The position numbers and the translations under genes were made by a program. Of a stretch of DNA of 64,000 nt, positions 6,584-12,745 are shown in pieces. The DNA is from a virus: UHGV virus genome UHGV-0120889, one strand, 5' to 3'. How positions within the stretch are numbered: position 1 is the stretch's first letter; each line of letters starts with the position of its first letter. The notes under the pieces are model-generated. The model did no database searches. It was not told where the DNA came from and saw only the letters and a list, made by a program, of their open reading frames with translations.

Positions 6584-6899
6584 CGTTTATGTTCGGGCAA
6601 GGTCGCTAGTCTTGCCCCGCCATTTTCAGGCAGCTGCATGTCTCCATGCAGACCAGACTATATCTTATAAGCGACAACAACCGCTTATCCTCCCGTTTCG
6701 AATCGCTTGATTCTACGTCTTTCGACTAGTCGTTGAACGTTCATCCTCTCGGATGCTTCGCTGCGGATTATCTAAATTAACACACTGTTACCATACCTTC
6801 GATCTCTCTTCGAAGCCTCTATCATGTTACCATGACAGGTTGGTGGTATTAATAGTAAAGATTTCCCCGCAATTAGGGAGGTTTTACGAGAGCTACAAA
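6584..6899 (-). ncRNA. group I self-splicing intron (ORF-less) in terminase large subunit gene
   Basis: Minus-strand hallmarks in canonical order: exon ends GAGGGU then UAA; internal guide GCUCUC (plus 6888-6893) pairs with exon end; P-like AAUUGCGGGGAAA (plus 6863-6875); R-like GUUCAACGACUA (plus 6723-6738); S-like AAGAUAUAGUC (plus 6656-6666); terminal G at 6584. Confidence 0.7.
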
Positions 6900-6902
6900 T
6901 TA

Positions 6903-7328
6903 ACCCTCATCGAAGCAAACCATGGTGTACTCAAGCCCTTGATGGTTAAGCTTATCTTGTACATACTCCATGTGGCAGTATTTTACAACAGCTCCCTTTT
7001 TGCTTCTATCCCACTTGCCAGTGTTCGGATCAAACCGTGGAAAAATGAACTTATGATCCTTCTCTCTGAACTTTGGCTTAATGTTTTCAGGCAGATCACT
7101 ATAAATAGCTACCGCTTTAGGCCATAGTCCACCCTCACCTTCCAACTGCGGGGTTGTTCTTCGGAACATAACCACAGAGCTGTGGGGGTCATCAATAATT
7201 TTAAGTGGCATCAATTGCAAGAGGAACGACTTGCCAGACCCTGCGGCACCGCCGATTACCAAAATATCTGCATCGTTTTCGAGGATCATCTTCTGCTTTT
7301 CAGAACACGGTCCGTAAATCTTAGACAT
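6903..7328 (-). CDS. terminase large subunit, exon 1 (N-terminal ATPase: Walker A and B)
   Basis: Walker A VIGGAAGSGKSF and Walker B MVCFDEG; frame hits TAA (6900-6902) immediately after the Gly codon, which is the first codon of the intron. Confidence 0.75.
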
Positions 7329-8431: not shown

Positions 8432-8508
8432 TGGTCTCCACGGAGTGATTCGAACACTCGACCTCCTGATCCCAAATCAGGCGCTCTACCAAGCTGAGCT
8501 ACGCGGAG
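8432..8508 (-). tRNA. tRNA-Pro (anticodon UGG)
   Basis: Hand-folded cloverleaf: acceptor CUCCGCG/CGUGGAG, D-arm GCUC..GAGC, anticodon stem CCUGA/UCAGG with loop UUUGGGA, T-arm GAGUG-UUCGAAU-CACUC, encoded CCA. Confidence 0.8.
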
Positions 8509-8519
8509 TATTTATTATT

Positions 8520-8594
8520 TGGTGGCCCTGGGTGGAATTGAACCACCGTCTGGCGATTATGAGTCGCTTGCTTGAACCTTCCAGCTACAGGGCC
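8520..8594 (-). tRNA. tRNA with anticodon CAU (Met or lysidine-modified Ile)
   Basis: Acceptor GGCCCUG/CAGGGCC, anticodon loop CUCAUAA, T-arm GGUGG-UUCAAUU-CCACC, encoded CCA; Met versus Ile2 cannot be told from sequence. Confidence 0.7.
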
Positions 8595-8595
8595 A

Positions 8596-8671
8596 TGGTG
8601 CTGATGGCAGGACTTGAACCTGCAACCTATTGATTACAAATCAATTGCACTACCAATTGTGCTACATCAGC
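8596..8671 (-). tRNA. tRNA-Thr (anticodon UGU)
   Basis: Acceptor GCUGAUG/CAUCAGC, D-arm GCAC..GUGC, anticodon stem AUUGA/UCAAU with loop UUUGUAA, T-arm GCAGG-UUCAAGU-CCUGC, encoded CCA. Confidence 0.8.
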
Positions 8672-8679
8672 AAAAAAGG

Positions 8680-8776
8680 TGCTAGGTGATGGAATCGAAC
8701 CACCTATGTATTCAACGACTACCTCGTCTATTTTCAGGATTAAAAATCCTCGCCCTTGCCAAAGGGCTTACCTAGC
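8680..8776 (-). tRNA. atypical long tRNA-like gene (about 97 nt), anticodon uncertain (candidate UUU) or pseudo-tRNA
   Basis: Perfect 7-bp acceptor GCUAGGU/ACCUAGC, D-arm GCCC-UUUGGCAA-GGGC and T-arm GGUGG-UUCGAUU-CCAUC, but about 30 extra nt between a short AGGA/UCCU stem (loop UUUUUAA) and the T-arm; no encoded CCA. Confidence 0.4.
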
Positions 8777-8874
8777 TCAGTATGTTGACCATGTTGCTAG
8801 TCGGCGATGACGACTGTAACATTTGATAATCCGGTTCTGCTTCCGGCTTTCGCTTAATTACAAGGTCAACAATA

Positions 8875-8965
8875 TGGCTGAGGGTAATGGAATCGAACCA
8901 TCATCGAGTCATCCTCAACGGGACGGTTTTCAAGACCGCTTGAGCACCATTGCTCCCTACCCTCA
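8875..8965 (-). tRNA. tRNA-Ser (anticodon UGA), long variable arm
   Basis: Acceptor UGAGGGU/ACCCUCA, anticodon stem GCGGU/ACCGU with loop CUUGAAA, long variable arm, T-loop UUCGAUU, discriminator G plus CCA. Confidence 0.7.
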
Positions 8966-9079
8966 TTTATAAACAATACTGATAATGACACTGATTTTCG
9001 AGCAGTTAGTGACTAGTATAAACGACGATAAATATCAATGCCATTATCTGTATGATTTATGCATTTAAAACTATAAATT

Positions 9080-9166
9080 TGGTGGGGAGTGGTGGAGTCG
9101 AACCACCCGAGTCGTAATGACAATAGATTTACAGTCTACACCGCTACCTCTACGGGATAACTCCCC
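9080..9166 (-). tRNA. tRNA-Tyr (anticodon GUA), long variable arm
   Basis: Acceptor GGGGAGU/ACUCCCC, anticodon stem GUAGA/UCUAU with loop CUGUAAA, T-arm GGUGG-UUCGACU-CCACC, encoded CCA. Confidence 0.75.
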
Positions 9167-9170
9167 AATT

Positions 9171-9245
9171 TGGCACCCCGTACTGGACTCGAACCAGTGT
9201 CAACGGCTTAGAAGGCCGCTGCTTTATCCACTAAGCTAACAGGGC
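9171..9245 (-). tRNA. tRNA-Arg (anticodon UCU)
   Basis: Acceptor GCCCUGU/ACGGGGU (two G.U), anticodon stem GCGGC/GCCGU with loop CUUCUAA, T-arm ACUGG-UUCGAGU-CCAGU, encoded CCA. Confidence 0.75.
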
Positions 9246-9680: not shown

Positions 9681-10030
9681 GTTTCCTCCATTATCACGTG
9701 ATAGGTGGATTTTATCATAGCAAATACTGATTGTCAAGTTCGCCGCAGGGTGGTATTCCCTGCGACTTGTCCAGCGTCCTGGACCAGCAAGACCCAACAA
9801 GTGGGTTTTCCAGCTATACCCATTACCGCGCACAGGCTCGACCTTATTACAGGTTGGCTGGGGTCACATCGTCATGTGCTGGCTGCCCCTACCATTTTAA
9901 GTGTGGTGCACTATCAAGCCCTCTAAGGGGAACTCAGCTTTCTCCGAACCCTGTTTCAAAGCATCCGGAGATAAAAAGCCATCAAATTCATCTTTAAATT
10001 GGATATTCATCATGATACACGAAAACAACC

Positions 10031-11127: not shown

Positions 11128-11634
11128 AGCTGCCTCCTCTTCAAGTTATAGAAAAACTCACTGTATCGCTTTGTAACGAGCTTTTCTATCAAACTGGTGC
11201 GATTGCCTTACCTGGTATAGTTTATATAGCTGTGGAGCGATTTAGGGGCCTTCTTGTCCGTTTCCACACATAAACTTCATCCAAGCTCGCGCGGGAGACT
11301 CTCAACCGACTCCTTACGGCGCTGGCAAGCTTTCGTCGGTGGTCCACATCAGTGCTCGGCCTTTGGCCTGCGCTATCGCTTCGCTCCCACACATGTTAAC
11401 AGACCTTCATGTATGCACTTCTGTTATTGTGTGCACCAAGGAGGCCCGGCATCTCGCCCCTCGTAGGCGAGTGCCAATGAAGGGCCGACACTACCTATAG
11501 TAAGTAATAAATTTAAAACATGGTACTTAGGATCTAGTATATTCTACATAAGTTAAGTATATGTACTTAGTACCATAAGTACTAGATCTTTTATTTTTTT
11601 TTTATTATTTAGTTATTTTAGTTATATTCTTTAT

Positions 11635-11717
11635 GTGTCCGTATCACGGACAGTTAGTGTCCGTATTACGGACAGATGTGTCCGCGTGACGGACAGTAGT
11701 GTCCGTATCACGGACAG
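11635..11717. repeat. array of four tandem palindromic 19-bp iterons GTGTCCG(T/C)NTNACGGACAG, period 21-22 bp, next to AT-rich tract 11589-11634
   Basis: Units start at 11635, 11657, 11678, 11699; each is an inverted repeat GTCCGT..ACGGAC. Direct observation. Confidence 0.85.
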
Positions 11718-11783
11718 TTACTAACCTCTGTTCCAGAGTGAACATAAAACATACGAATCCTTATAGTACAGATATTTAAGTTT

Positions 11784-12143
11784 TTACTGGTCTAACCAGT
11801 TGTTGACATTCGAATAACTTCTTCTGGTGGCAAAACTTTGGAAAATGTGCATCTTTTTACCTCTCCCTTGTGTGGATATTTCAACCACTCCTGCACATTC
11901 TAAAGTTTTAACGCACGCTGCTGCTTTTGTTTTCTTTATCCCAATATCTGCTGCAATTTTCCTTGTGCTGGGCGTGAAGCGTGAATTTCCTCCAAGCTTA
12001 TACCAGTTGTGCAGGTAGCAGTATACGATCTTGTCATATAAGTCAAGAACAACAACCTCACCAGTTGTGTCATTCAAAACTTTTGACATAGACAGTATTT
12101 CAAGGGGGACTTTAAGATATAGCAGCTTATCCCCATCTTTCAT
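11784..12143 (-). CDS. putative helix-turn-helix DNA-binding protein
   Basis: 119 aa; segment STRKIAADIGIKKTKAAACVKTLECAGVV resembles an HTH; gene ends 67 bp from the iteron array. Confidence 0.45.
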   Translation of the reverse strand: MKDGDKLLYLKVPLEILSMSKVLNDTTGEVVVLDLYDKIVYCYLHNWYKLGGNSRFTPSTRKIAADIGIKKTKAAACVKTLECAGVVEISTQGRGKKMHIFQSFATRRSYSNVNNWLDQ

Positions 12144-12190
12144 ATCTCCTGATTCTCCTTGTGTGGCAATTTTCTTTAAAATAGCAGGGA

Positions 12191-12745
12191 TTACTCCACG
12201 CTGTCAATAGCAAGACTCATTGCAATACGGTATGCCTCTTCTAATGGTAAGAGTCTCCCCCACACATCCCAACCGACATCAAACTGCCTGCCAAACAACT
12301 GCTGTGTGGTTCCGTGAGCATGACCGAACAGTTGGACCGATCCGTGAGGCTTTCTGTTCCACTTTGCAAACTGGTAATGGCTCATACAGATCAAATTCTT
12401 GTTGTGGCGAAGCTCGTAATAATCTACAACCTCATGACCGAACTCTTTCATAATTCTGACAGTCGTCCTTGTGTCATGGTTACCACGAACAAGAATAATA
12501 TGTCCGTTCAACATATTTAGAACATCTGGGAGCAATTTGTTAATATTCTTATCATTAGTGCACGCAATATCTCCTAAGTGAAACACAGTGTCTGCAGGTG
12601 ACACAACAGAGTTCCACTTGGTGATGATCCCCGCATTCATACTGTCAAGATTGTGATCATACTGAGATCTGTGTTTTTGACATGAGTCAAACTCCATGAC
12701 CCGCTGGTGGAGAAAGTGTGTGTCGCTTGTTACAAAGTATTTCAT
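12191..12745 (-). CDS. calcineurin-like metallophosphoesterase
   Basis: Motifs SDTHF, GDIACTND, GNHD, GHAHG; track ORF trimmed to ATG at 12743-12745 (MKYFVTSDTHF) to remove overlap with upstream kinase gene. Confidence 0.65.
   Translation of the reverse strand: MKYFVTSDTHFLHQRVMEFDSCQKHRSQYDHNLDSMNAGIITKWNSVVSPADTVFHLGDIACTNDKNINKLLPDVLNMLNGHIILVRGNHDTRTTVRIMKEFGHEVVDYYELRHNKNLICMSHYQFAKWNRKPHGSVQLFGHAHGTTQQLFGRQFDVGWDVWGRLLPLEEAYRIAMSLAIDSVE

Follow-up and report, generated by a model that had tools for sequence, protein, structure and literature searches.

We analysed a 64,000-nucleotide stretch of the virus genome UHGV-0120889 (the window) and find in it a locus that is probably the replication-origin module of the rV5-like (Vequintavirus) phages, or one of their origins; we give this reading a probability of roughly 65%. 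The parts of the locus are a small winged-helix gene of the rV5 gp075 family, four dyad-symmetric iterons, an A-rich tract that adjoins them, a conserved AT-rich zone, and a GC-rich non-coding element that appears to fold. The whole analysis was computational. The window comes from an rV5-like Vequintavirus; its positions 11130-12200 are 99.8% identical to Escherichia phage rV5_ev147, and 119 phage records match. Positions 11.2-11.8 kb of the window correspond to about 64.7-65.3 kb in rV5. The minus strand carries every gene around the locus, so the iterons lie downstream of the stop codon of the winged-helix gene and not in its promoter. Read in the direction of transcription, the order is promoter, gp075 gene, spacer, iterons, A-rich tract, AT-rich zone, GC-rich block, leader and gp073 (Table 1).

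Four phased iterons adjoin the most AT-rich DNA of the window

An initial annotation of this DNA had reported four phased inverted repeats, and these are real. The window contains exactly four copies of TGTCCG-N5-CGGACA (11636-11652, 11658-11674, 11679-11695 and 11700-11716), each a perfect 6+5+6 dyad, whose starts are 22, 21 and 21 bp apart and the nearest of which begins 67 bp past the gp075 stop codon. By chance 0.07 copies would be expected per window; none of 100 shuffled sequences reached four, and no further copy was found in the 64 kb even when one mismatch was allowed. Since the iterons are two helical turns apart, they lie on one face of the DNA. Iteron-type theta origins are recognised by at least three phased direct repeats of 17-22 bp beside an initiator gene, and such an arrangement is present here.

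The same annotation had placed an A/T-only tract of 46 bp (11589-11634) directly beside the repeats. Its position and its richness in A and T stand, and its purity does not, since it holds three G or C bases (G at 11612, G at 11621 and C at 11629); its first 23 bp (11589-11611) are pure A/T, and the window has no longer run of that kind. The 130 bp that start at 11505 are 81.5% A+T, the maximum of the window (the next best value is 74.6%), and they stand side by side with its most GC-rich 250 bp. By composition alone, this DNA has the AT-richness of an unwinding element. The AT-rich zone between the tract and the GC-rich block (11503-11588) contains the inverted repeats GATCTAGTA/TACTAGATC, four GTACTTA/TAAGTAC heptamers and two GATC sites, and is a candidate site for auxiliary factors or for Dam/SeqA.

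Constraint on these segments was measured as nucleotide diversity (pi) in an alignment of 19 Vequintavirus sequences. Constraint in the region is strongest on the iterons and the A/T tract: pi is 0.0087 in the iteron arms, 0.009 in the bases between iterons and 0.0066 in the A-tract, which is nearly invariant save for the length of its poly-A run. The AT-rich repeat zone (0.012) is also highly conserved, and the iterons and the A/T-rich zone are conserved beyond codon positions 1-2 of the neighbouring genes; values are higher in the GC block (0.043) and the iteron centres (0.052), and reach 0.08-0.10 at third codon positions of the flanking genes. The spacer at 11718-11739 is hypervariable (0.28) and thus apparently unconstrained, so that DNA evolves freely only a few bases from the iterons. 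Fourteen of the phages have four iterons, four have three and one has two. Iteron loss is always an exact deletion of one or two units, as is expected from unequal recombination among functional repeats.

The gp075 protein resembles the DNA-binding domains of replication initiators

The helix-turn-helix (HTH)-like gene that had been proposed beside the repeats is confirmed as a gene by its matches to PHROG 12838 (E 4.5e-66) and to the Pfam family HTH_36 (25.1 bits against a cut-off of 25; DUF6945 scores 26.9 against 28). PHROG 12838, which is the protein's own family, is labelled 'replication initiation protein', RefSeq gives the gene the same label by family transfer, and weaker matches are to four other initiator or O-like PHROG families; no match to the Pfam family Phage_rep_O was obtained. 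A profile of the gp075 family matches PDB entry 4RO3 (E 2.1e-9). An AlphaFold2 model built on the same alignment (predicted local distance difference test, pLDDT, 79.4; predicted template-modelling score, pTM, 0.75) also has 4RO3 as its best Foldseek match (E 2e-5, template-modelling (TM) score 0.67, 28% identity). The next matches, 4PQL, 4PT7 and 5KBJ (probability 1.00, TM 0.50-0.56), are each the N-terminal domain of a staphylococcal plasmid initiator of the RepA_N type; one is in complex with DNA. The best match, 4RO3, is the N-terminal domain of RepA from PLE, an element of Vibrio cholerae like a phage-inducible chromosomal island; this protein binds the repeats of the PLE origin, as determined by electrophoretic mobility shift assay and genetics, and during infection by phage ICP1 it is required and sufficient for PLE replication (PMC7145576). 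Its RepA_N domain co-varies with the origin (PMC8263062). Judged by profile and by predicted fold, gp075 is an initiator-type DNA-binding domain whose nearest solved relatives are initiators.

The protein is 116 residues long in relatives and 119 in the window, and ends just past the wing and one helix. The window's copy has a private +1 frameshift, with a run of five T at 11854-11858 where all 18 compared relatives have four; the longer run is either a sequencing error or a strain variant. Close homologues are confined to Vequintavirus: tblastn against phages and a word-indexed protein search found none beyond the genus, and an IMG/VR protein search with gp075 returned nothing. A few distant relatives turned up in an exhaustive HMMER search, on contigs that are short and whose context is uninformative. 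Two of these distant relatives (P0010 and P0011, 194 and 217 residues) end in acidic tails, ...EDCDEAPF and ...GDEDPDAPF. The tails resemble the C-terminal protein-interaction tip of SSB, the protein that binds single-stranded DNA, and may be a recruitment motif that is missing from gp075.

The same iteron recurs in unrelated phage initiator genes

A search of IMG/VR for a single iteron copy gave mostly chance matches. Two tandem copies of TGTCCG-N5-CGGACA specify 24 bases, so that by our estimate chance matches should be negligible. Eighteen IMG/VR contigs contain such arrays; they represent about seven unrelated lineages, whose G+C contents range from 0.40 to 0.70. An array comprises 2-7 copies, for the most part spaced 20-25 bp, and most arrays fall inside open reading frames (ORFs) of 130-430 codons, directly after an N-terminal winged helix. 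In the lineages inspected, a stretch that is relatively A-rich on the coding strand follows the array. The proteins encoded by these ORFs match PHROGs labelled 'replication initiation protein', 'replication initiation O-like' and 'DnaD-like helicase loader'. Five of the six array proteins tested match PHROG 270, which gp075 matches weakly, and three match HTH_36, one of them above threshold; the profile of their N-terminal domain aligns with the gp075 family (hhalign 94.8%, E 5e-8). An origin inside the initiator gene, between its two domains, is the layout of lambda O with ori-lambda and of the RepA_N plasmids, whose origins lie within rep, and most of the 18 arrays share it. One contig (L129; 169 kb, G+C 0.40) has instead the same split layout as the window: a 120-residue HTH_36 gene, its stop codon, two bases and four iterons, followed by an A-rich tract and then a GC-rich hairpin. 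These comparisons are evidence that TGTCCG-N5-CGGACA is a recurrent iteron of what appears to be a widespread phage initiator family.

Related phages pair homologous proteins with different repeats

Comparable modules are present in two other genera of the Vequintavirinae. In Klebsiella phage KP12 (L152, 1450-1660), a 122-residue protein related to the gp075 family (hhalign 79.7%, E 1.5e-5; HTH_36 17 bits) adjoins three copies of TATTCC-N6-GGAATA in a divergent intergenic region, and past these palindromes the DNA is A-rich and contains ACTAAC repeats and two AAGATCT motifs. In the Enterobacter phage EC152, a Seunavirus (L154, 2216-2370), a 105-residue gp075 homologue (hhalign 97.8%, E 1e-12) adjoins two CTCAAATTGATA repeats and a nearly identical A-rich segment with AAGATCT, again in a divergent intergenic region; the A-rich segment with two AAGATCT motifs in these two modules is similar to the AT-rich DNA of the window. 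A divergent rV5-like phage from IMG/VR (L158) keeps the A-tract and the GC block and has a different repeat, GATACATATTTGYATCAGAT. The position syntenic to that of the window, behind the phosphoesterase gene, is without iterons in KP12 and ECGD1. Every module described here lies no more than 1.5 kb from the point of divergent transcription. Homologous small proteins thus stand beside different repeats, which indicates that protein and site change together. Together with the constancy of the A-rich/GATC part, this is the pattern expected of an origin module with an exchangeable specificity determinant, to which these sequence comparisons point.

The GC-rich element is non-coding and is predicted to fold

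The 250 bp that start at 11245 are 57.2% G+C, the maximum of the window, whose mean is 42.7%. The view that this block holds no convincing ORF is borne out by stop codons and by codon-position variability in relatives. Most relatives have stop codons within the plus-strand ORF at 11254-11466. The annotated 'ORF78' of the minus strand (11222-11392) varies least at third codon positions, and its third codon is a stop in one relative. No 3-periodicity was found in the block. Nowhere else in the window is there a paralogue of it. A second GC-rich stretch, at about 9700-9950 (~53% G+C), lies between annotated ORFs downstream of the tRNA cluster and is unlike the element at 11225-11490. Rfam 15 gave no match for the element in the window at gathering score or E≤10, and none for the satellite homologues described below at E≤0.5.

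The single-sequence fold z-score of the block is only -1.7, and covariation within Vequintavirus alone was uninformative (term -0.01); it became informative only when homologues from another source were added. Among E. coli genomes and plasmids we found partial homologues, 84-85% identical in two pieces (window 11282-11349 and 11439-11498), which belong to the satellite-like circles of the next section. Between phage and satellite, ACCGAC/GUCGGU is replaced by GCUGCC/GGCAGC (three pairs), GGCA/UGCC by GUCA/UGAC, and CUCGCC/GGCGAG by CUCUCC/GGAGAG; five compensatory double changes fall in two helices when the phage is compared with a satellite homologue. In L158, GGGAG/CUCCC has apparently become GGAAG/CUUCC (read by eye, as the formal alignment misplaces the 5' end of L158). 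In an eight-sequence alignment of the core, 95.7% of the cells pair, and helix 4 is 100% paired, and in three of its six pairs both bases have changed. The covariation score of 0.172 compares with 0.104 +/- 0.016 for shuffled alignments (0 of 500 reach it) and 0.018-0.055 for slid-partner controls.

The top pair of helix 4 is G.U in two phages, and a predicted outer helix, which has no covariation, contains invariant U.G pairs; since these would be A.C mismatches on the opposite strand, the gene-direction (minus) strand is favoured as the one that folds. The satellite copies have extra hairpins inserted between the conserved cores, as is often seen in structured RNAs. The element may be an RNA, or else a signal in single-stranded DNA. 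An 18-nt deletion (11413-11430) between GTGCA direct repeats, present in rV5 and three further relatives, removes one arm of a predicted hairpin; that hairpin is therefore dispensable.

The folded element is shared with 13-kb satellite-like circles

The E. coli homologues of the GC-rich element sit in a large non-coding region (2.3-2.9 kb, with iterons) of circular elements of 13.2-13.7 kb (L155, NZ_CP020521.1; L156, NZ_CP043822.1; L157, NZ_CP178698.1); one record of 39.6 kb is a trimer. Such circles are carried by E. coli 190 (plasmid unnamed4), RM10740 (p3RM10740) and VTB97448v (pVTB448v-4). These circles encode a major capsid protein distantly related to known phage capsids, a tape measure, a small HTH protein, and a 'baseplate' protein that is 51% identical to an rV5-like tail-tube-initiator/structural protein and whose top listed matches are mostly Vequintavirus. 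They also encode a full-length RepA_N-like Rep of 288-303 residues with an N-terminal domain homologous to gp075 (hhalign 94.5%, E 8e-8), and the folded element lies near it. Iterons lie directly upstream of the folded element at 23 bp spacing in two of the circles, as four or five copies of CGGTAA-N3-TTACCG in L156 and four copies of CCTGTMAAAATATTTTAC in L157; L155 has two other palindrome sets about 550 nt from the element. Phage and satellite have the same order of iterons, short A/T stretch and folded GC-rich element; the iterons and the initiator differ between them, while the folded element is common to both.

An 18-mer search of metagenomes gave mostly chance matches and, after filtering, seven true homologues; contigs of 13.9 and 15.5 kb carry the folded element. 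It is absent from 185,579 GTDB representative genomes, and we found no description of a Vequintavirinae satellite in the literature. By sequence comparison the 13-kb circles, with the metagenome loci L184 and L204, seem to form a family of satellites or mini-phages that is linked to Vequintavirus and has not been described.

How the module might work

We propose that gp075 would act as a stand-alone initiator DNA-binding domain of the RepA_N/HTH_36 type, dimers of which would bind the four dyad-symmetric iterons, and that the resulting nucleoprotein complex would strain and melt the adjoining A-rich tract. The folded GC-rich element might then act in priming or in replisome loading, either as a transcript (R-loop RNA or a primer) or, once melting has exposed it, as a single-strand initiation signal. 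Since gp075 has no C-terminal recruitment domain, replisome recruitment would depend on phage replication proteins, which might recognise the melted or folded DNA or RNA. What suggests the priming or loading role is the lack of a recruitment domain in gp075, taken together with the retention of the folded element by satellites that have a full-length Rep. Such a mechanism would explain why the 13-kb elements keep the GC-rich element in spite of having their own initiator and iterons. That the element takes part in priming or loading by phage-encoded proteins is the least secure step, and we offer it tentatively, as something that falls well short of even odds; the KP12 and EC152 modules do not have the element, and it might just as well be an RNA gene with no link to the origin that is here by chance.

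By analogy with iteron plasmid origins, a folded element beside an unwinding region could be a priming signal; the ssiA and ssiB sites of the RSF1010 oriV are single-strand initiation signals. We know of no dedicated primase that recognises the GC-rich element. A fuller version of the idea is that the block is an origin-linked structured nucleic acid recognised by the rV5-type replisome, that the 13-kb satellites hijack helper replication by carrying a copy of it beside their own initiator and iterons, and that the phage initiator has been reduced to a bare DNA-melting domain, since recruitment would run through the block; this whole is speculative, and on balance we doubt it.

Evidence against an origin, and other explanations

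Several observations weigh against the idea that the locus is an origin. HTH_36 matches gp075 only at threshold, and the Pfam family RepA_N does not match it at E≤1. The winged-helix fold is common to many transcription factors, and CodY, MarR and GntR proteins occur lower in the same lists as the initiators. The absence of a C-terminal recruitment domain is a difficulty in itself, and in the window the frameshift replaces the last ~20 residues of what remains. Relatives tolerate two or three iterons. The covariation of the folded element rests essentially on two clades, and the element is absent from the KP12 and EC152 modules, so it is no universal origin part. There are no DnaA boxes (TTWTNCACA) between 11 and 12 kb, and the window total of 9 equals the chance expectation (8.95). 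The point of divergent transcription, 1.5 kb from the locus, is the cumulative GC-skew minimum of the window, and the 2013 rV5 genome paper placed the same switch at 66,675-66,725 and could define no origin; skew follows transcription, so the switch is equally explicable by divergent transcription, and its co-location with the locus is weak and non-independent evidence for an origin.

The initial annotation had offered two readings of the site, a replication origin and a multi-operator site, with the neighbouring HTH protein as the one that binds it. Binding by the cognate protein at an origin gains from the initiator homology, the recurrent iterons, the co-variation of protein and site, and the constraint; a pure operator comes out weaker, since the sites are ~460 bp downstream of the gene's own promoter and a consensus scan found no minus-strand sigma-70-like promoter beside them. 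If the locus served transcriptional control only, gp075 would be a repressor or roadblock, and its operators would limit how much transcription runs on into gp073 and the genes after it, or would govern a promoter located in the AT-rich zone. The fold shared with MarR, CodY and GntR regulators would suit this, as would the label 'transcriptional regulator' that several records give the gene, the absence of a terminator between the gp075 gene and the downstream genes, and the position of the KP12 and EC152 repeats, which lie in a divergent promoter region near the gene start where autoregulation is plausible. The best relatives of gp075 are nevertheless initiator DNA-binding domains, identical arrays inside initiator ORFs cannot be promoter operators, and the extreme conservation of the adjoining A-rich tract would be left unexplained. 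We regard control of transcription alone as unlikely. Initiators commonly autoregulate, so regulation is compatible with an origin, and gp075 could regulate its own gene alongside initiation.

A different possibility concerns the GC-rich block, which may be an independent non-coding RNA gene (regulatory or counter-defence) that is transcribed from the AT-rich zone, possibly under gp075 control, has no role in priming or loading, and is needed by the satellites as the same RNA. Its conserved pairing, the G.U wobbles that fit the gene-direction strand, its length of ~265 nt with variable hairpins inserted in the satellites, as in many structured RNAs, and its absence from the origin-like modules of KP12 and EC152 all agree with such a gene. 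Its placement does not: it lies downstream of an iteron array in the phage, in three satellite variants and in the divergent phage with different iterons, and in L156 and L157 it directly adjoins the iterons; the consensus scan also found no promoter for it, and it matches no Rfam family. We think an independent RNA gene rather improbable, though less so than transcriptional control by itself. Very improbable, in our opinion, is that the repeats serve packaging (as a pac site) or partition, with gp075 bound to them to mark the genome for the terminase or for segregation. The DNA of rV5 is circularly permuted (PMC3606486), so headful packaging needs a pac site, and satellites, which often copy the packaging signal of their helper, would on this account share the non-coding element found in the circles. 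That common element, however, conserves pairing and not duplex sequence, which is unexpected of a double-stranded protein-binding pac site; the TGTCCG iterons are not in the satellites, gp075 is an initiator-type domain and not a small terminase subunit, and a virulent phage needs no partition.

Comparison with known systems

Iteron origins and RepA_N-type initiators are well known, and the locus, read as an origin, can be set beside several of them. Ori-lambda has four dyad-symmetric iterons of ~18-19 bp, bound by dimers of the winged-helix N-terminal domain of O, and an AT-rich region on one side; gp075 and the array proteins give weak matches to the PHROG label 'replication initiation O-like'. 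Unlike the window locus, ori-lambda lies inside the O gene, and the C-terminal domain of O recruits P-DnaB. The RepA_N plasmid initiators of Gram-positive bacteria (RepA of pSK41 and pTZ2162) are of the same fold class as gp075; in rV5-like phages, by contrast, the gene ends ahead of the iterons and lacks a C-terminal domain, and the iteron centre is a variable 5-mer where that of the RepA_N iterons is a poly-A tract. RepA_N plasmid iterons are described, in a statement quoted in PMC7145576, as semi-palindromic direct repeats.

PLE RepA is the closest to gp075 both by profile and by fold, and its domain likewise binds repeats at a non-coding origin with which it co-varies. It differs in having a C-terminal domain thought to recruit the helper replisome and in its iteron sequence, and PLE is a satellite whereas the window virus is a 137-kb virulent phage. 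The ICP1 protein Odn (Gp88) is a precedent for a lytic-phage domain, similar to the RepA N-terminal domain, that recognises origin iterons, as we propose for gp075 (PMC8263062); Odn is a nuclease fusion that targets the origin of a satellite, whereas a nuclease domain is absent from gp075, whose presumed sites are those of its own genome. The plasmid pMOL98, as quoted in PMC9499019, has iterons, an AT-rich and a GC-rich segment in the same order as the window. The GC-rich part is ~265 nt here as against 28-29 bp in iteron plasmid origins, and the window locus is without DnaA boxes.

In the literature, as far as we could search it, we found no origin of rV5-like phages, no iterons of Vequintavirus or Vequintavirinae, and neither this iteron sequence nor its family; nor did we find a stand-alone N-terminal-domain initiator, the folded GC-rich element, or its sharing with satellite-like circles. 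The rV5-like phages are widely used in O157 typing and biocontrol and are part of the BASEL collection, and the locus gives them a concrete, testable candidate origin, with a protein, four sites, a putative unwinding tract and a predicted folded element. Its design would be unusual in that the initiator is reduced to a DNA-binding domain. That the phages and the 13-kb circles have the folded element in common suggests a helper and satellite relationship that had gone unrecognised, perhaps with one replication signal for both; this link is the most promising lead and may matter more than the origin itself.

Features of the locus and its surroundings

Table 1. Parts of the candidate origin module and adjoining features, in the direction of transcription.
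Feature	Position	Strand	Remarks
Sigma-70-like promoter, TTGACA-18-TATTTT with TG	12178-12207	-	ahead of gp075 gene; 'P76' annotated in rV5
Small winged-helix gene (rV5 gp075 family)	11784-12143	-	putative stand-alone RepA_N/HTH_36-type DNA-binding domain
Spacer, stop codon to iterons, 67 nt	11718-11783	strandless	11718-11739 hypervariable, pi 0.28
Four 17-bp dyad-symmetric iterons	11636-11716	strandless	TGTCCG-N5-CGGACA, 21-22 bp phasing
A-rich tract (gene strand), proposed DNA-unwinding element	11589-11634	-	43/46 A+T
Conserved AT-rich zone, interleaved inverted repeats	11503-11588	strandless	
GC-rich non-coding element, predicted to fold, ~265 nt	11225-11490	-	
Conserved leader with hairpin	11128-11204	-	
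gp073 homologue, 192 aa	10549-11127	-	PHROG 12226, function unassigned

The gp073 protein was considered as the C-terminal half of a split initiator and rejected; it has no similarity to the C-terminal parts of the array ORFs, to the satellite Rep or to any PDB chain. A weak plus-strand sigma-70-like match (TGAACA-17-TATAGT, 11739-11767) adjoins the iterons and points antisense into the gp075 gene; its -10 hexamer is TATAAT in one relative (L003; alignment read by eye). It could be an origin-activating promoter, an antisense promoter or a chance match, there being three such matches in the region where 2.5 are expected.

Elsewhere on the minus strand of the window are a group I intron in the region of the terminase large subunit (6634-6912; Rfam 84.3 bits), already known from rV5, and a cluster of seven tRNAs (8432-9245). 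The cluster includes a 99-nt tRNA-like gene (8678-8776) to which ARAGORN gives a four-base anticodon and which other records call tRNA-Lys or 'OTHER'. Among the database records, 18 that are labelled 'Campylobacter phage' (MG0656xx) are 90-98% identical to rV5-like coliphages in this region, and an E. coli 'plasmid' of 137.5 kb (CP057073.1) is the genome of an rV5-like phage (99%). Mislabelling or carry-over of phage is the probable cause.

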